The notes below the pieces were generated by a model. The model saw nothing but the letters and a program-made list of their open reading frames with translations, did not search any database and was not told where the DNA came from. From contig JANPJS010000253.1 in the NCBI GenBank assembly GCA_031425655.1, positions 1 through 33,140 of the forward strand: 33,140 bases of DNA. Reading direction: 5' to 3'. Positions within the stretch are counted from its first letter, which is position 1. Every line of letters starts with the position of its first letter. This stretch comes from Abditibacteriaceae bacterium (GTDB lineage: Bacteria; Armatimonadota; Abditibacteriia; Abditibacteriales; Abditibacteriaceae). Shown here piece after piece: positions 22,008-32,881 of this stretch. A program made the translations under genes and the position numbers.

Positions 22008-23078
22008 TCAACCTACGAAGGTTTGCTCTTCCTCGGCGGTTTCGACCAGCAAGGCCGTTGTGACATCGCGGACGCCAGCTATGGCGCGCACCACGCTTTC
22101 GACGCCGGCACGCGTGGCTTCGTCCACCATCGGGCCGCGCAGCGTAACCGAGCCGTCAATCACGTCCACGTTGAAGCGTGCAAGATTGCTCAACGCGGCA
22201 TTGTGGCCGAGCGCGGTGCGCACGCGCGCTTCGATAGTGGCGTCGTCAACGGCATCAACCGAAGGATGCACACGATCTTTAAGATCATGCGCGAGACCGG
22301 CGGCACGGTGCGTCAGGTCTTCGGCCTTCTTTTTAGCGACGTTGCCCAACTCGCCGGCGTCATGGCCAGCTTTGGTCAGCTTATCGCGCACGGCGGCGCG
22401 GCTGCGGCGGCCTGAAGCCGGCGCCAGCAAGATGCCCAAAGCAACGCCGGTGAACACGCCAACGGCCAGCCAGAGCAGCTTAGTCGTGAAATCGGCTTTC
22501 TTGTCCACGATCTTCACTTCCGGGATGTAATCGGGCACATATTGCGCGGCGCGGTCATGCAAAGCCTTGCCCGCTTTTATGCCTATCGTGCCGGCTTTGT
22601 GCGCAGCGTTTTGCGCGGCGTTTTGCCACAGCAAGGGCGCGTGCGCCGCTGCGCCGCGCGCCATTTCAGAGGCCCGCGCCTTCGCATCTTGCGCGCGATC
22701 CGCTGCTTGATGCCGGGCGTCACTCAAACGCTCGCGTGCCGCCTGCGCCGCTTCGGCGGCACGTTGGGCAGCGATGTGGGCCGGTTCGTCCAAGCGGTCG
22801 TGAGCCGCTTCGCTGGCTTTGTGCGCGGCTTCGGTGGCGCGTTGGGCCAAATCATGCGCCAAATCGCCCGCTTTGTGCGCCATCACGCCCCACGCCGACG
22901 TGGCGGCATCGGCCACCGAATCCTTCCAACCGTGCAAACGCTCGCCGGTTTCCTGCGCCTTGTCGCTTGCTTTCTCGCGCGCTGTTTCAAAGTGCGCCGC
23001 GACGGCGTCTTTGGCTTCGTGTGCCGCATCTTGAACCGCGTCCTGCATTGCCTCGCACTTTGTTTTTTTGCCAAACAT
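22008..23078 (-). CDS. YtxH-like / LEA-like helical protein with C-terminal BON domain
   Basis: Ala-rich helical repeats; GVALGILLAPASGRRSRAAVRDK (YtxH); DDATIEARVRTAL..VDVIDGSVTLRG (BON). Confidence 0.85.
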   Translation of the reverse strand: MFGKKTKCEAMQDAVQDAAHEAKDAVAAHFETAREKASDKAQETGERLHGWKDSVADAATSAWGVMAHKAGDLAHDLAQRATEAAHKASEAAHDRLDEPAHIAAQRAAEAAQAARERLSDARHQAADRAQDAKARASEMARGAAAHAPLLWQNAAQNAAHKAGTIGIKAGKALHDRAAQYVPDYIPEVKIVDKKADFTTKLLWLAVGVFTGVALGILLAPASGRRSRAAVRDKLTKAGHDAGELGNVAKKKAEDLTHRAAGLAHDLKDRVHPSVDAVDDATIEARVRTALGHNAALSNLARFNVDVIDGSVTLRGPMVDEATRAGVESVVRAIAGVRDVTTALLVETAEEEQTFVG

Positions 23079-25374: not shown

Positions 25375-25629
25375 CTATTGGACAATCAACACGCCTTTGT
25401 CGTAAACGTCCCTGACGCCGCGCAGGGCACGAATGTGCTGCTTAAGCGATTCCATCTCTTTTTTGAAGTTTATGTCGCCGCGATAACCGCGTGGAGCGCG
25501 CACTTTCCCGGTCAACTCGATGTAGCCATCCACGCAGTGAACTTGCAATTCTCCGACATCTAAAACGGTGCGGGCAAACGAGGTGCGCGCTAATTTGGCC
25601 AGCGCGCGGTCTTCTGATTTGGTGTTCAT
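25375..25629 (-). CDS. Small BON-domain-like protein
   Basis: LQVHCVDGYIELTGKV...IRALRGVRDV; ATGA overlap with the upstream gene. Confidence 0.7.
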   Translation of the reverse strand: MNTKSEDRALAKLARTSFARTVLDVGELQVHCVDGYIELTGKVRAPRGYRGDINFKKEMESLKQHIRALRGVRDVYDKGVLIVQ

Positions 25630-26264
25630 GGTTTCCCCTTTTGAGAATTCTCTGGCAGCGCCTCAGCAGTGTTTTTCGGCCTGACAATGATCGTGGCCTG
25701 ATAGTCGCCCGGCTCATGGCCTTTAACATAAACCGTGGCCCGCAGTTTATGTTCGCCTCGGCGTAGCGCTTTAAACTGCACGTTGATTTGCCCGTCGCGC
25801 GGCAACTGCCCCAGAGCAAAATATTCTCCTTTTCCAAGCGTTGAGGGCCTTTGCAATTTGGGCTGCGAACCGGTTATTTGAAAATCGTGCAGGAACTTTT
25901 TATCAAAACGCAGTGTAACGTCTTTAAAAGCCGTAATACTTTTGGCGTCAATTGTGTCCGGCACCAGCGCCAGTGAAAGTGTGCTGCCAAGCTCAATGCG
26001 GCGCTGAACTTGCCCGTAGAGGGCAATTTTGCCCTGTGAAATGCGGCGCGCATCAAGTAGCATCAGCGAAGCCACGGCGGTGGCGACCGCGCCTCCAACG
26101 ATGGTCGCCCACAAAATCGGCCCGACAGGCCGCCTCCAAGCCGCCCAGGGCAATTTGCGCGGCCCGGTTTCGGCCAAAAGCGCGCCGCAGCCGGCGCAAT
26201 GCGGATAAGTGATGAATTTTTCTAAATTGACGACGGCGCAATTGGGGCAGCGGATTTTTCTCAT
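25626..26264 (-). CDS. Hypothetical zinc-ribbon + single-TM + beta-rich protein
   Basis: CPNC...CAGC, TM segment ILWATIVGGAVATAVASLMLL; start uncertain (26264 or 26351). Confidence 0.65.
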   Translation of the reverse strand: MRKIRCPNCAVVNLEKFITYPHCAGCGALLAETGPRKLPWAAWRRPVGPILWATIVGGAVATAVASLMLLDARRISQGKIALYGQVQRRIELGSTLSLALVPDTIDAKSITAFKDVTLRFDKKFLHDFQITGSQPKLQRPSTLGKGEYFALGQLPRDGQINVQFKALRRGEHKLRATVYVKGHEPGDYQATIIVRPKNTAEALPENSQKGKP

Positions 26265-26331
26265 GGGGCGCGTCAAAGCATAAGCGGACGCCAAGTCGGA
26301 AACCGGCGGCGCTTCACCCAATCGAGCGGTT

Positions 26332-27033
26332 TTACGCGATTTCAGTTTCATCTTTCAACGCGGCCTCAATCACTTCACGCATGGCATGGACGTTCTGCGC
26401 CGGCGATGCGGCTCCACCAAAGATGTTCGAGCCGCACACCAGAACATCGGCTCCGGCGCGCACGGCAAAAGGCGCAGTTTGCGGGGACATTCCGCCGTCT
26501 ACCTGAATCAGAAAATTTAGCTCGCGTTCGACGCGCCTGTGATGCAATTGCGCGATCTTATCCGCCGCCAAAGGCAGATATTTCTGGCCCGAAAACCCCG
26601 GATTCACGCTCATCACCAAAACAAAATCCAAGTCGGGCAGCAGCGTATCGAGAACATTGACCGGCGTGGCCGGATTCAGCACGGCCCCGGCTAACACGCC
26701 CCCGTCCTTAATTTGCGCGATCAGGCGATGCAAATGCGGCTGCTCTTCGACGTGAACACTGATGCTGTCGGCGCCCGCCTTGAGGAAATCTTCGATAAAG
26801 TCGCCGGGGTTTTGCAGCATGAGATGCGCGTCGAAATGCAGTTTCGAGTGCGGACGCAAAGCCGCCAAAAACATCGGGCCGAGCGTGAGATTAGGCACAA
26901 AATGGCCGTCCATCGCGTCCCAGTGCAGCCATTCGACGCCGGCTTCGGCCAACTCGCGCACCGTATCGAGCGGGCGCGACCAATCGGAGGCGATCATCGA
27001 AGGCGCGAGCTTTACCGAACGCGCGGCGCTCAC
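26332..27033 (-). CDS. rpe: Ribulose-phosphate 3-epimerase
   Basis: LAPSM, HWDAMDGHFVPNLTLG, DAHLM, LVMSVNPGFSGQ, QVDGG. Confidence 0.97.
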   Translation of the reverse strand: MSAARSVKLAPSMIASDWSRPLDTVRELAEAGVEWLHWDAMDGHFVPNLTLGPMFLAALRPHSKLHFDAHLMLQNPGDFIEDFLKAGADSISVHVEEQPHLHRLIAQIKDGGVLAGAVLNPATPVNVLDTLLPDLDFVLVMSVNPGFSGQKYLPLAADKIAQLHHRRVERELNFLIQVDGGMSPQTAPFAVRAGADVLVCGSNIFGGAASPAQNVHAMREVIEAALKDETEIA

Positions 27034-27353
27034 GAAATCTCCTCGCGCGCGGCAAGAGCTTGCTCGTTAGTGCGCGGCGGCTCCGGCGGATTTGGCGGAA
27101 TCAGCGCTGTCGGAATCGGCATCGGACGCAGCGCGCCGGGCGTTGGCACACCAGACGGCGAAGGCTCGCCTTTGCTGCTTTCGCGCTCTGCCCACTGCTC
27201 AACGGCGCCCGCCAGACGGTCAAGGCCCGCAGCGGCACGGCTCAGGCAAAAAAGCGCGTAAACCCCGCCGAGCAGCAGCGCCATCACCATGATTAATTGA
27301 ACCATGAGCCAAAGGCCCAGCATCCCGGTTATAGTTTGCGAAGCGTCGTTCAT
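27030..27353 (-). CDS. Small membrane-anchored hypothetical protein
   Basis: N-terminal TM, Pro-rich tail; GTGA overlap with rpe. Confidence 0.7.
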   Translation of the reverse strand: MNDASQTITGMLGLWLMVQLIMVMALLLGGVYALFCLSRAAAGLDRLAGAVEQWAERESSKGEPSPSGVPTPGALRPMPIPTALIPPNPPEPPRTNEQALAAREEIS

Positions 27354-27375: not shown

Positions 27376-27488
27376 AAAAAGTGAAAAGTGAAAAGTAAAA
27401 AGTGAAAAGTAAAAAGTGAAAAGTGAAAAGCAAAAAGTAGTGCGCTGGAAGCCGTTACTTTTCACTTTTTACTCATTACTCTTCACTT
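27376..27488. repeat. Heptamer (RAAAAGT)x9 with inverted copies
   Basis: Nine units at 27376-27438; ACTTTTC/ACTTTTT/ACTCATT/ACTCTTC/ACTT at 27457-27488, overlapping the PfkB gene's stop. Confidence 0.9.
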
Positions 27489-28414
27489 GTGTTCATAAAT
27501 TCCAGCGTTTCGTGCAATGGGCGAATGCCCGCGACGGTGCCGACCTGCCTCACGCACGAAGCGCCGACGGCGTTGGCCAGAAGTCCGGTTTGTTCCAGAT
27601 CGAAATCGTTGACGACTCCGGCTAAAAAGCCCGCCGCGAAGGCATCGCCGGCGCCCGTAGCGTCTACCGACTTGACTTTATAAGCCGGCAGGCGCCATTC
27701 GTCGTCGCCGGAGCGAATATAACAGCCTTGCTCGCCCATTTTCAGAGCGACTACGCCGACGCCCTCGTCTTGAAACGCGCGGGCGACTTCTTCGGGCGTC
27801 GTTGCTCCCGGCACACATTGGCGCGCTTCGTGAAAACTCGGCACGAAATAATCAATGTAGGGCAGGGCCGGGCGCAGCGTTTCCATCCAGCGGCCCGATG
27901 CGTCCCAAACGGTGTCGAGCGAGGTTTTCAGGCCCATTTCGCGCGCTTTTTTCAAGACTTGCGCGGCGGGCGAGCCATCGAACTTCGGCATCACGAAATG
28001 CCCGGCGACGTGCATCAATTTCGCGCCGCGCAGCAAGTCCCAGTTGATGTCCTCGGCACTGAATTCGGCGTTGGCACCCAAGTAATGAATAAACGAACGC
28101 TCGCCGTCGCCGGCAATCATTACCATCGTCGCCGAAGTTTTGGCGCTTTCATCGGTGGTCAGGCCCGTAATGTCGAGTCCGTGAGATTGCAAAATACCGC
28201 GCACCATGTCGCCAAAGCCGTCGCGCCCGACTTTGCCGATAATCGCTGTCGGCACACCGAGCTTTTGCAGTCCGATGCTGGTATTGGCCGCGCAGCCGCC
28301 TATCGAAGGCCACATTTCGCGGCAAAGGGACAGCTCGCCGCGCTGCGGATAAGCGTCCACAGGCCGCGCGATGACATCGGCAACAATAATTCCAATGCAA
28401 ACCACATCAGGCAT
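27476..28414 (-). CDS. PfkB family carbohydrate kinase
   Basis: GGCAANT..LQKLG..IGKVGRDGFG, DATGAGDAFAAG. Confidence 0.95.
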   Translation of the reverse strand: MPDVVCIGIIVADVIARPVDAYPQRGELSLCREMWPSIGGCAANTSIGLQKLGVPTAIIGKVGRDGFGDMVRGILQSHGLDITGLTTDESAKTSATMVMIAGDGERSFIHYLGANAEFSAEDINWDLLRGAKLMHVAGHFVMPKFDGSPAAQVLKKAREMGLKTSLDTVWDASGRWMETLRPALPYIDYFVPSFHEARQCVPGATTPEEVARAFQDEGVGVVALKMGEQGCYIRSGDDEWRLPAYKVKSVDATGAGDAFAAGFLAGVVNDFDLEQTGLLANAVGASCVRQVGTVAGIRPLHETLEFMNTSEE

Positions 28415-28436: not shown

Positions 28437-30116
28437 CTAAAATCGTTCGCTCGCTTCGATGCCGAGCATTTTCAGGGCATTAGTAATCGCGGCTTGCGCG
28501 CCGCGCAACAAATCAAGACGCTGTTGTGACGCCGAAGCGGGCCGCGAGGCGCTCAAAACACGCCGCACCGCGCCCGCGAAATCCACTGTCCAGCGCGCCA
28601 CCAGTTGCGGTTCGCGGCGCAATGCGGCGTTTTCCGCCGTGTCGGGCCACAAAGCGACTAAACGCGCCAATTCGGTTTCCTCGGCATTCAAAACGCCTTC
28701 GGCAAGTGGCGCGGCCCCGCATTCGCCGATCATGGTGACCAAGCGAGAAGGCGCCAGACGCGCCGCGTAAGCCGGATTGCGCTCGTCGTCGCGCGCGGCG
28801 ACTTCGAGATCAATTTCGCAAACTTCGTCCCACGACGCCAAAAGAAAATGCAATCGCAGCGTGTCAGCGTCTACTTCGTCGAGCGCGTCTTCGAGCAAAA
28901 GCGGCTCGCCGCCGGCGCTTTTCACGGCTTCGCCGTCTTCGAGCAGTCGCGCGCCTTCGCAAATCAGCGTTTCCAGACGCGCCCCATCGCAGCCAATGGC
29001 CAAAAGCGCCGCCCGCGTGCGCGCCACGTAAGGCCGATGCTCCGCCGTCCAGATGTCAAGAATCAGGTCGAAGCCGCGCTCAAATTTCCATGCGTGATAA
29101 GCGATGTCCGAAGCCAAATACGTCGGCTGATTGTTGCTGCGCACCAATGGACGGTCGCTTTCGTCGCCGAATTGGGTGGTGCGAAGCCATAAAGCACCAT
29201 CGCGCTCGAAGGTGTGACCAAGTGCGCGCAGCTTTTCCACGACGGCGTTAATGCGGCCTTCGGCGCGCAAAGTGTTTTCTGAAGTCCACAAATCGAAGCG
29301 CACGCCGAACGTTTGCAATGCGGTTTTTTGCACGTCAACAGCGGCCATCGCGGCGCGGCGCGCGAAAAACAGATTCCGCTCGCTTTCGGGTTCGAGCAAA
29401 TGCGAATTACCGTCGCGCGCGGCGATTTCCTGCGCCACACGACGCACAAACGCATCTTGCAAAATGCCTTCGGGCGCTTCGCCGTGACGCCCAAACGAGG
29501 CCTCGTAAAACGCGCCGACGCTTTCGCCGAGCAGGCGCATTTTCGACGATGACGGCACGTCGTTCACGAAATACTCGCGCGTGACTCCAGCGCCCTGCGC
29601 TTCCAATAAACGACACAGCGCCTCGCCCGAAGCCGCGATGCGCGCCGCCGAAAGCGTTAAAGGCCCGGTCGGGTCGCTCGATACGAATTCCACATTGGCG
29701 CGACGGCCCGCTAAAGTGCTGCCGGCGCCGAAACGCTCGCCTTCGCGCGTCGCGCGCGTGAGTTGTTCCATCACAAATGCCTCATCCATGCGAAAATTCA
29801 AAAATCCGTTTGCGGTTTCAACGACACCCGGCCACAGTTTCATCGCTTGCAGCCGGATTCGCAAAACTTCGGCGATTTGGCCGGCGCTGCTTTCGGTCAG
29901 AGCGCCCAAAGCCAGCGCCGCCGTGCAAGAAAACTCGCCGTTTTCGCGGCGCGCCAACCGCATTTCAAACGCCAAATCGTGTGCGTTACAACCTTCCGGC
30001 AATTCGATTTCGCCGGACTTACAAGCGCTTAAAATCGCAGCGCGCACGGCTTCGCGCAGCGATTGGCGCGTTACAAAGCCTTGAGAATCCACTGCGCCGC
30101 CCAGCTTTGCAGCCAT
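28437..30116 (-). CDS. Arginine--tRNA ligase-like protein with degenerate HIGH/KMSK motifs
   Basis: ArgRS architecture throughout (GFLNF, EFVSSDPTGPL, REYFVND, LWLRTTQFGDESDR, TYLASDIAYH, LGI..SERF), but HIGH reads TLSA and KMSK is absent. Confidence 0.85.
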   Translation of the reverse strand: MAAKLGGAVDSQGFVTRQSLREAVRAAILSACKSGEIELPEGCNAHDLAFEMRLARRENGEFSCTAALALGALTESSAGQIAEVLRIRLQAMKLWPGVVETANGFLNFRMDEAFVMEQLTRATREGERFGAGSTLAGRRANVEFVSSDPTGPLTLSAARIAASGEALCRLLEAQGAGVTREYFVNDVPSSSKMRLLGESVGAFYEASFGRHGEAPEGILQDAFVRRVAQEIAARDGNSHLLEPESERNLFFARRAAMAAVDVQKTALQTFGVRFDLWTSENTLRAEGRINAVVEKLRALGHTFERDGALWLRTTQFGDESDRPLVRSNNQPTYLASDIAYHAWKFERGFDLILDIWTAEHRPYVARTRAALLAIGCDGARLETLICEGARLLEDGEAVKSAGGEPLLLEDALDEVDADTLRLHFLLASWDEVCEIDLEVAARDDERNPAYAARLAPSRLVTMIGECGAAPLAEGVLNAEETELARLVALWPDTAENAALRREPQLVARWTVDFAGAVRRVLSASRPASASQQRLDLLRGAQAAITNALKMLGIEASERF

Positions 30117-31441
30117 GTCATCAGCACACTCACGAGCATGATGCCGAGTGCCGAATAAATCATGCCCGACCGCAGCAGGCTGGCCCCAAACGGCGGCATG
30201 ACGTGCGGCTGATCTTGATATTTTTCCAGCAACGCGCGTCCGGCATCAATGCCGCTTTGCAGTTGGCGCGGCGTTGCCGGTTTGGTCGTGAAAACCAGTT
30301 GTAACATCTCGCCGAAGTTACGCCACGTCAGATAAATAAAGAAGAGCGCAAACAAAATTGTGCCGCCGTCGAAGCTGGGCAAGTGCTGAAAAATAATGGT
30401 AATCAGACCGCTTAGCGCCAGCAAATTGGTGCCGCAGCGCGGATGAGCGCGCGGCATTTTCGCTACGACTTCGGGCACAAGAGGCAAGCCTCGTTCGATA
30501 GCCCACACCGTTTGGTGTTCGGCGGCGTGGACGCCCGAAATCGGCAAACATCGCATTGCCGACACAAACACCAGCGAATGCACGAGGGCGATCACTAAAT
30601 TGAGCAGGCTGCCTTCGCTGGAAAAAGCGCCCAGCCGCCCTGAAGAAAATAACGCCGCCCATTCGGGGTTGATGAAGGCCAGCGGAATCAGCAGCGCAAA
30701 ATACGCGAAGATCATGCACAGGCCCAGCGTTGCGCCGGACAGAAACAAGCCCAGCGGCGGCGCTCCGGCGCTGAGAACGCCGGTTGTCAGCCACACGCCC
30801 AGCGGCGTGGCCATGCCGCCCACGACCGGCGGTCGCACGTTGCGTCCCAGTGCCGAAATGGCATCGGCGCGCGAAATCATGCCGCGAAAACCGCCGTCCG
30901 GCTCGATAACGGGCAACGCCGCGCAATCGTAGCGGTCGAGCGTAATCAGCGCATTGTGCAGAGAAAACAACGCCGGCACGATGCCGAAATCGCTGCGCAT
31001 CACGTCGCGCGCCGTGAGTTGCGTGATGTCGGCCAAAGGCGGCAAAAGCGGCGCGTCTTCGCTTTGTGTGAAAGGCCCGAATTCGCCGCCCCCGTTTTGC
31101 TCATGTCCGTTGCGCGACAAAGCGGAAAACGCATCGTTTTCCACCGTGCCGACTGCAACCGGCACAGCCCGGCGCGCGATTTCCTGCGCGGCAAGGACGG
31201 GAAGCACCGCATTGGCGAGATCGCGCTCGTCAATTACGCCGATCACGCGCGCCTGACGCGCCATGCGCTGCCAGTTGGCGCCGCCGGGATCGGCTTCGTC
31301 GCCGCCCGCCACAAGACGATCCACCACGGGAATCGCCCCGCAGCCCGACGCGCGCAAATTTTCGGCGACCAGACCAATCGGATCATCCGCGAGGGCCACC
31401 GGCGTAATGCGGGCGACTTGTCCGGCACGAGAAAAAGGCAT
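30071..31441 (-). CDS. CBS-pair + DUF1385 membrane protein
   Basis: CBS motifs AIPVVD..VIGVIDERDL and LPVIE..FRGMISRAD; DUF1385 motifs VGGMA..GV, HAAEH, HPRCGT, LQ..TTKP. Confidence 0.85.
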   Translation of the reverse strand: MPFSRAGQVARITPVALADDPIGLVAENLRASGCGAIPVVDRLVAGGDEADPGGANWQRMARQARVIGVIDERDLANAVLPVLAAQEIARRAVPVAVGTVENDAFSALSRNGHEQNGGGEFGPFTQSEDAPLLPPLADITQLTARDVMRSDFGIVPALFSLHNALITLDRYDCAALPVIEPDGGFRGMISRADAISALGRNVRPPVVGGMATPLGVWLTTGVLSAGAPPLGLFLSGATLGLCMIFAYFALLIPLAFINPEWAALFSSGRLGAFSSEGSLLNLVIALVHSLVFVSAMRCLPISGVHAAEHQTVWAIERGLPLVPEVVAKMPRAHPRCGTNLLALSGLITIIFQHLPSFDGGTILFALFFIYLTWRNFGEMLQLVFTTKPATPRQLQSGIDAGRALLEKYQDQPHVMPPFGASLLRSGMIYSALGIMLVSVLMTWLQSWAAQWILKAL

Positions 31442-31446
31442 GAGAG

Positions 31447-31500
31447 AAGTGCGGGGTGTGGAGTGCGGAATTCGCCATCTGCAATTCACAATCCGCAATT
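31447..31500. repeat. Degenerate heptamer tandem-inverted hairpin
   Basis: AAGTGCGGGGTGTGGAGTGCGGA (31447-31469) vs TCTGCAATTCACAATCCGCAATT (31478-31500), 17/23 complementary. Confidence 0.65.
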
Positions 31501-31588: not shown

Positions 31589-32881
31589 TCATGCGATAAC
31601 GCTTAGACCGCCCATATAAGGCCGCAAAGCGGGCGGAATCGTGACCGTGCCGTCGTGATTTTGGAAATTTTCTAAAATCGCCGCCATTGTGCGCCCGACG
31701 GCCAAGCCCGAACCGTTCAGCGTATGCACGAATTCGGGTTTGCCTGCCTTTCCGGTTTCATCCAGCGGGCGATAGCGAATGCTGCTGCGCCGCGCTTTAA
31801 ACGCCTCGAAATTGGTGCAGCTTGAGATTTCCCGATAAGTGTTTTGGCTGGGGAACCACACTTCCATGTCGTAGGCTTTGGCGCCTTTGAAACCCAAGTC
31901 GCCGCTGCACAATTCAACGGTGCGATACGGCAAATCGAGCAATTCCAGAATCGCTTCGGCGTGACGGCGCAATTGTTCCAAAGCCTCATACGACTGCTCC
32001 GGGCAGGTAAACCACACTAACTCGACTTTATTGAATTGATGCACGCGAATAATGCCGCGCGTGTCGCGTCCGGCGGCGCCGGCTTCACGGCGGAAGCACG
32101 CCGTATAAGCCGCATACTTCACCGGAAGCAGCTCGGCGCCAAGAATCTCGTCGCGGTGCAGGTTGGTGACGGGCACTTCGGCGGTCGGCACAAGCCACAA
32201 ATCGTCGGCGGGCAAATGATACGAATCTTCGCCGAATTTCGGCAAATTTCCGGTGCCGATCATGCTTTCCGAGCGCACCAAAAACGGCGGAAAAACTTCC
32301 TCGTAGCCGTGCCGCGCCGTGTGAACATCCAACATCAGCGCGATTAAAGCGCGTTCCAAGCGCGCACCGGCGCCGCGCAAAACGTAAAAGCGCGAGCCGC
32401 TGATTTTCGCGCCGCGCTCGAAATCAATGATGCCCAACTTTTCGCCGATGTCGTAATGCGCTTGCGCCTCGAAATCGAACTGCGGAATCTCGCCCCACTT
32501 CGCCACTTCGACGTTTTCATGCTCGTCGGCGCCGATTGGCGCCGATTCGTGATGGATATTCGGCACTTCGAGCAGTCGCGCATCTAACGCGGCTTCGATT
32601 TCGCGGCTTTGCGCGTCGAGTTGCGTGATGGTTTCGCCCAAAGTGCGCGAATCGTCCATCAAATCGTCGGCGTTTTCGCCGCCTTTTTTGGCTTTTGCCA
32701 CCTGGGCCGAGATTTCGTTGCGCCGCCGTTTATGCTCTTCGACTTCGAAAAGCAGACTGCGCCGCTGTTCGTCGAGCGCCAAAACTTCGTCTACCAGTTG
32801 CGCGGCATTTTCGATTTGCTTGTGCGCGAGGCGTTCTTTGACCAAATCGGCGTTGTTGCGAATGAATTTCAGTTCGAGCAT
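31589..32881 (-). CDS. serS: Serine--tRNA ligase
   Basis: [63 protein letters not shown]. Confidence 0.98.

Follow-up and report, generated by a model that had tools for sequence, protein, structure and literature searches.

For several amino acids, examples of repurposed synthetases have been described; in the present case, a whole bacterial family, the Abditibacteriaceae, keeps an apparently retired arginyl-tRNA synthetase (ArgRS) under selection like that on a working enzyme. Among the known examples, GluQ-RS (YadB) is ATP-dependent and has no anticodon domain, and the cyclodipeptide synthases (CDPS) have lost the ATP motifs. HisZ is an aaRS-derived protein without adenylation activity which has kept amino-acid binding, and SbzA and the CDPS are class I relatives using charged tRNA (PMC9437257). 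Vertebrate DALRD3 has kept a tRNA-Arg-binding DALR domain and has no recognisable catalytic motif (PMC7237682), and ArgRS itself can transfer arginine to thiols, which leads to Arg-Cys peptides (PMC5370406). A literature search for NrtL, an ArgS-related anticodon-binding protein (NF045898), brought up no paper. The term ArgRS does not occur in the available main text of the aaRS-paralog reviews PMC9437257 and PMC5388404; the supplements of the latter may list ArgRS duplicates. No published description of the protein studied here was found in the literature searched, outside of which most subscription papers and supplements lie.

The gene, referred to as altered argS, is located in a window of 33,140 nt (the whole stretch of DNA analysed) together with the features listed in Table 1. 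As an earlier note made from the bare sequence had stated, it is an uninterrupted ORF of 559 codons colinear with ArgRS; it starts with ATG on the minus strand, and its product carries the Pfam domains tRNA-synt_1d and DALR_1. The product scores 213.6 bits against the ArgRS model TIGR00456 (argS), below the cut-off of 261.65, compared to 450 bits for the sole-copy ArgRS of genome G031. Its AlphaFold model (pLDDT 95.5) shows the ArgRS fold consisting of Add1, Rossmann and DALR parts. The best structural matches are solved ArgRS, of which the C. jejuni structure 3fnr is the closest (TM 0.90 by target length), and matches in the ESM Atlas belong to ArgRS clusters only. The reported overlap with the upstream CBS-DUF1385 gene, which ends at 30071, amounts to 46 nt when counted from the ATG, and a start at the in-frame GTG codon 9 would cut it to 22 nt. 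Residues 1–8 are modelled with low confidence, and a homolog with 87% identity is 551 aa long. All motif changes quoted in the earlier note (residues 143–157, 356–363, 398–404, 447–458 and 559) were confirmed, as was the near-canonical segment at residues 309–341. Identical changes recur in 120/120 best homologs, which rules out chance or sequencing error as their source.

Table 1. Features of the altered argS locus, in window coordinates.
Feature	Position	Strand	Basis
rpe, ribulose-phosphate 3-epimerase, same gene run	26332..27033	(-)	profile match
PfkB-family kinase, downstream	27476..28414	(-)	Pfam, locus comparison
Altered native argS, 559 aa (551 aa from GTG at codon 9), full ArgRS fold	28437..30116	(-)	ORF, Pfam, TIGR00456, AlphaFold, structure match
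SC-fold and DALR domain, residues 421–559	28440..28856	(-)	homolog and control alignments
KMSK window	28905..28928	(-)	sole-copy control alignment
Residues 356–367, H360 = E. coli Q341	29016..29051	(-)	family and control alignments
Guanidinium pocket Y333, D337, K344	29085..29120	(-)	alignment of 120 homologs
E280, invariant	29277..29279	(-)	alignments
HIGH position, residues 154–157, relaxed	29646..29657	(-)	alignment of 120 homologs
Arginine-binding strand, residues 143–148	29673..29690	(-)	alignment, E. coli equivalents per PMC3956977
N-terminal Add1 domain, residues 17–135	29712..30068	(-)	alignment; A20 pocket motif from PMC3956977
CBS-DUF1385 gene, upstream with overlap, ancestral at this locus	30071..31498	(-)	Pfam, locus comparison
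serS, upstream	31589..32881	(-)	profile match, locus comparison

A search of the source genome (G000, 97% complete) for a second, canonical argS, as the earlier note had proposed, was successful. The second ArgRS (G000:C300:6905-8668) scores 478.8 bits, above the curated cut-off, has an intact HxGH motif as well as the loop lysine, and shares 22% identity with the altered argS product. Both ArgRS types are present in 27/27 Abditibacteriaceae genomes searched, which were placed in the family by named relatives. HxGH and loop lysine are found in 24 of the 25 second copies aligned, G015 being the variant; the alignment left out G010, whose copy is divided between contigs. The second copy of G017 contains internal stop codons and has the motif. 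These second copies sort into several distant groups. All four main tRNA-Arg of the source genome carry A20, the major bacterial determinant (PMC9976931), and thus no isoacceptor obviously requires a second enzyme. ARAGORN also revealed clusters of atypical tRNA genes on contigs C61, C217, C317 and C70 of this genome, including one gene whose anticodon (Arg/Pro) may consist of four bases and, in the C70 cluster, a gene with a TTA anticodon; they may represent mobile-element tRNAs or pseudogenes.

Altered argS lies directly downstream of CBS-DUF1385 in 23/27 Abditibacteriaceae loci, and the same arrangement of argS occurs in 8/15 genomes outside the family, four of them sole-copy. The closest intact relatives of its product are Armatimonadota enzymes with 36–37% identity. 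This shared position and these relatives show that altered argS is the lineage’s own inherited argS at its ancestral locus and no fresh duplicate. We infer that the working second ArgRS is a horizontally acquired xenolog of another subfamily. The label paralog was therefore replaced: altered argS is the native ortholog, whose place as the working enzyme a xenolog has taken. Likewise, the CBS-DUF1385/PfkB/rpe neighbourhood, formerly regarded as a clue to the role, was passed on from the time when the gene was a working one and tells little about a new role. The PfkB-family kinase adjoins argS outside the Abditibacteriaceae too, and serS is near altered argS in 17 loci of the family and near argS in 0/15 outside genomes. 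CBS domains fused to DUF1385 were found in 30/35 phylum genomes searched. As an obligate partner CBS-DUF1385 was ruled out, because it is found in 8/11 genomes without a native copy, in three of which it adjoins a foreign-type ArgRS. At loci L119, L120 and L123 (G055, G125 and G205), a foreign-type ArgRS directly downstream of CBS-DUF1385 apparently replaced the native gene in place.

Elsewhere at the locus, two small genes flanking rpe (27030-27353 and 25626-26351) have no Pfam or NCBIfam match and recur in 13 and 10 Abditibacteriaceae loci, respectively. The product of the gene at 22008-23078 combines YtxH-like and BON-domain parts and begins with a long helical stretch rich in alanine. Downstream of argS in several Armatimonadota families, a protein of 840–940 aa is encoded (L253:9343-11961, counterparts in L246, L248, L252 and L254) which matches no Pfam family over cut-off; its Atlas look-alikes are unnamed and provide weak glycoside-hydrolase/CBM leads. 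Neither this protein nor an uncharacterised gene of about 870 aa, which comes after the altered copies of two further families, was found in G000. No biosynthetic gene cluster was seen around altered argS, which lies in a housekeeping locus. An Rfam search of the window gave 0 matches, and the promoter and terminator counts equalled those of shuffled sequence.

For the assessment of the motif changes, 51 single-copy ArgRSs of the phylum were aligned (40 chosen from single-match genomes, 11 from prior searches); two foreign-type sequences were dropped, leaving 49 native sole copies as controls. The loss of both HIGH histidines is real, as had been claimed, but fails as evidence of inactivity: both are missing in 22/49 sole copies. 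HIGH loss as proof of inactivity is ruled out by these controls, and by itself it is no marker of a dead ArgRS. Sole, presumably essential ArgRSs (L029/G031, L030/G034 and others in L159–L198) carry Thr, Ser, Asn, Gln or similar residues instead of the HIGH histidines. Among the best 120 homologs of altered argS, the HIGH position is occupied by 50 different four-residue words and position 151 is G in 94%; the HIGH-loop lysine is absent from the altered copies.

The KMSK window, earlier considered the more variable and weaker sign, turned out to be the cleaner signal, with its motif present in 49/49 sole copies and 0/27 Abditibacteriaceae copies. As a rule, ArgRS needs either this motif or the HIGH-loop lysine, and the altered copies have neither. 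The same distribution (49/49 against 0/27, with a few rows gapped at the C-terminal sites) was observed for N148, Y451, Y454, Y521 and the terminal Met. Nearly all sole copies (at least 47) have D359 and Q387, both of which are absent from the Abditibacteriaceae copies (D359 in 0/27), whereas G357 is kept in 8/27 of the latter. In the SC-fold/DALR region of the altered copies Y451, Y454, H456, H518, Y521 and the terminal Met are all replaced, and a new conserved patch specific to the Abditibacteriaceae comprises residues 442–456, W490 and R518. Based on work on the yeast and Thermus enzymes, we take the lost positions to be ATP- and anticodon-contact residues; Y454 and the terminal Met are presumably tRNA contacts. 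As both ATP-site motifs and anticodon-domain residues which sole copies never lose are missing, the altered argS product very probably can no longer charge tRNA. The earlier statement that the protein probably cannot adenylate arginine yet remains intact is thus supported as probable, not by the HIGH motif but by the KMSK window, N148 and other positions. Databases name the altered proteins arginine--tRNA ligase, an annotation which this result would correct.

A slow, specialised or condition-specific synthetase, or an ATP-dependent arginine ligase, with a non-standard ATP site appears improbable. Such an enzyme would be in agreement with the full fold and length and with the A20 asparagine, which is mostly retained (N107 of the A20 pocket in Add1 is N in 22/27 and Q in 5/27 Abditibacteriaceae copies). 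The subfamily also tolerates the loss of both histidines and, in 2/49 sole copies, Thr in place of the KMSK lysine, and a degenerate KMSK is a feature of many ArgRSs (PMC3956977). It would nevertheless have to function after the joint loss of the KMSK window, N148, D359, Q387, Y451, Y454, Y521 and the terminal Met (occurrence of every one: at least 47 sole copies, 0 Abditibacteriaceae copies), and with A20 in all four main tRNA-Arg no isoacceptor is obviously in need of it.

Altered argS is intact and under purifying selection across the Abditibacteriaceae. The altered form is present in 27/27 genomes, and its pairwise dN/dS values (0.08–0.24, median 0.15) are similar to those of the working ArgRS (0.07–0.32, median 0.15) in 12 genome pairs, which share ancestry and hence are not independent (NG86, own code; dS up to 1.3). 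Both the conservation of the motif loss and the dN/dS below 1 for which the earlier note had advised to look were thereby found. That altered argS is a redundant gene in neutral decay, retained solely through its operon position, is barely credible with these values, which match those of a working enzyme. Related lineages do have shortened copies (406–483 aa) or none, and the family copy of G003 is frameshifted; however, serS and CBS-DUF1385 of G003 are broken up as well, a sign of probable assembly errors. Moreover, polar residues are invariant among homologs at 44–87% overall identity, and altered argS persists in three Abditibacteriaceae genomes where it is separated from the CBS-DUF1385 gene. 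Neutral decay is thus largely refuted, and the retention of altered argS points to a second, undescribed job.

In the phylogenetic tree, a long stem (1.0 change per column) precedes the radiation of the Abditibacteriaceae, so that the history of altered argS is a burst of change followed by constraint. Altered copies of different families cluster (support 99/98), and a tree uniting the Abditibacteriaceae with their class relatives was borderline rejected (p-AU 0.032), with long branches. The tree did not include G027, G075, five short copies or the G025 copy, which is split between two contigs. One origin of the altered form and several origins are both compatible with this long-branched tree.

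The arginine pocket shows the opposite behaviour to the lost sites. E143, S146, E280, Y333, D337 and H360 are found in 120/120 best homologs, position 344 being K or R in all of them, and E143, E280, Y333, D337 and H360 as well as W356, Y363, R366 and T367 are kept in 27/27 Abditibacteriaceae copies. By alignment, E143, S146, Y333, D337, H360 and K344 correspond to E. coli D118, A121, Y313, D317, Q341 and R324, which make up the arginine site of ArgRS; the substitutions D118A and D317A abolished arginine binding (PMC3956977). The counterparts of the other E. coli main-chain binders, N123 and H132, are D148 and position 157, whose residue has been lost. Residue 148 is N in 49/49 sole copies, D or E in 27/27 Abditibacteriaceae copies and in 120/120 best homologs, and D in 7/14 altered copies of other families, with no other residue seen. 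E280 aligns without gaps, in a weak alignment (E 0.057), to yeast E294; we take this residue to be an A76 contact, and R326 is presumably a tRNA contact. Of the roles under discussion, arginine binding is the one supported, by a pocket kept in 120/120 best homologs.

A similar pattern was observed in 14 altered native copies from four other families that also carry a second ArgRS match. They keep the same arginine pocket and have lost the anticodon residues; position 157 is H in 12 and Q in 2 of them, half keep N148 and half have D148, and the A20 asparagine is lost in several. Some of the 14 are shortened to about 400–480 aa, and a named record from the Capsulimonadaceae shows a similar altered pattern. 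The Abditibacteriaceae copies (27 rows) share 37 kept positions with the altered copies of other families (14 rows). All of these are located in residues 143–395 and none in Add1 or DALR; some may be structural, and no catalytic nucleophile stands out. This split common to several families, with the pocket kept and the ATP and anticodon sites dropped, constitutes a natural experiment which parts a second function from aminoacylation. Genomes G111, G164 and G184 carry a largely intact native copy alongside a second ArgRS. At least 11 genomes have a foreign-type ArgRS only, a native copy not being found with the queries used, and the second role is therefore not universal. In G025 the native copy extends over two contigs (L088, L089) and has an intact HIGH motif, D148, altered residues 361–362 and an altered C-terminus, possibly representing an early stage of the change. 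Besides a separate full ArgRS, G027 contains a 390-aa native argS remnant (L090:6862-8031) with deleted catalytic centre and conserved Add1 and DALR, an NrtL-like layout (147 bits, cut-off 340).

The G027 remnant has the pattern expected for a tRNA-Arg adaptor of a modifying or processing enzyme, for which vertebrate DALRD3 with METTL2 is a precedent (PMC7237682), and in altered argS Add1 N107 is retained and DALR has new conserved residues in the Abditibacteriaceae. An adaptor role of altered argS is nonetheless quite improbable: in this family the pattern is reversed, with an invariant arginine pocket and the canonical DALR residues gone, and no modifying enzyme linked to the locus was seen. 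The plain tRNA-binding role suggested before is a poor fit as well, because it is residues of the anticodon domain that have disappeared, and a GluQ-like role, which needs ATP motifs, found no support.

Since the arginine pocket and nearby acidic and basic residues are kept while the ATP and anticodon sites are dropped, our best reading, adopted tentatively, is that the altered argS product may bind Arg-tRNA at its arginyl end independently of ATP and act as a transferase, deacylase or sensor. It would most likely bind the arginyl-A76 end of Arg-tRNA(Arg) charged by the xenolog, without ATP; it would next hand the arginine over to an acceptor, release it by hydrolysis or report the charging level, and transfer or hydrolysis is favoured over reporting. 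In this model E143, Y333 and D337 would hold the guanidinium, S146 and D148 the alpha-amino group, H360 the ester carbonyl, and E280 and the D321/R326 segment the tRNA 3′ end. N148D and the loss of H157 would take away the partners of a free carboxylate, which an ester does not have. Arg-tRNA is ranked first because the two carboxylate partners are lost and the carbonyl partner is kept in the Abditibacteriaceae, and because E280 and R326 are kept although, as we understand known structures, they are unneeded for the binding of free arginine. The latent thiol-arginylation activity of ArgRS (PMC5370406) adds to this ranking. Against it, the 14 other altered copies (H157 in 12/14, N148 in half) fit free arginine equally well, and no acceptor or partner emerged from the analysis.

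An intact arginine pocket would likewise suit a sensor of free arginine (or agmatine), i.e. a HisZ-like allosteric subunit or regulator whose remodelled C-terminal surface would relay the signal to a partner, and the new conserved patch at residues 442–456 could bind a protein. We rank such a sensor second and consider it somewhat unlikely. In other lineages the pocket, H157 included, is retained although tRNA-binding domains have been shed, and ArgR (PF02863) was not found in 5/5 genomes searched, but one of these five is also without the native copy. ArgB appears to have its own arginine site, formed by an N-terminal helix seen by alignment and a C-terminal segment which we take to be the arginine signature. 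By inspection of 21 Abditibacteriaceae loci, no shared leader or Arg-rich peptide was seen upstream of argC. Finally, the two carboxylate partners are changed in the Abditibacteriaceae, and a sensor of free arginine would not need the invariance of E280 and R326. Without bearing on the role, ATE_C occurs in 2/5 genomes (not in G000) and L/F-transferase in 5/5, and a stand-alone B3/4 protein is absent from 5/5 genomes searched. The probability left beyond the readings listed belongs to roles outside the list.

Extending the Arg-tRNA reading, it is possible, if rather doubtful, that the inherited ArgRS of the phylum has a hidden ATP-independent activity which transfers or hydrolyses the arginine of Arg-tRNA, and that a foreign ArgRS freed it, possibly several times, to become a stand-alone enzyme. 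If true, altered argS would represent tRNA-dependent arginyl-transferases or deacylases with an ArgRS scaffold, a class not described so far.

Compared to the ArgRS described by TIGR00456, altered argS has the same fold, domain order, arginine side-chain pocket and ancestral gene position; unlike these enzymes, it scores below the cut-off and lacks the KMSK window, N148, the G357/D359 pair, Q387, the conserved DALR tyrosines and the terminal Met. NrtL is also bacterial and ArgS-derived, and its model omits most of the catalytic domain. Altered argS scores 66.1 against this model (cut-off 340), whose 327 positions cover the N-terminal and DALR parts, whereas altered argS conserves the catalytic domain most. 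DALRD3 resembles it as an ArgRS-related, non-aminoacylating protein retained for another role, as predicted for altered argS; however, altered argS keeps the catalytic pocket and loses the canonical DALR residues. GluQ-RS is, similarly, a class I paralog repurposed outside protein synthesis, but altered argS has lost the ATP motifs and keeps the anticodon domain. With HisZ it shares the aaRS origin, the predicted lack of adenylation and the amino-acid pocket; HisZ in contrast belongs to class II and has HisG as partner, and no partner emerged for altered argS. With CDPS and SbzA it shares the proposed transfer from charged tRNA (PMC9437257), in altered argS proposed from the conservation pattern alone, and it differs from them by its full ArgRS length, its housekeeping locus and the absence of any sequence or Pfam match. 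Altered argS thus appears to resemble known repurposed synthetases and yet to depart from ArgRS, NrtL, DALRD3 and CDPS in the features tested.
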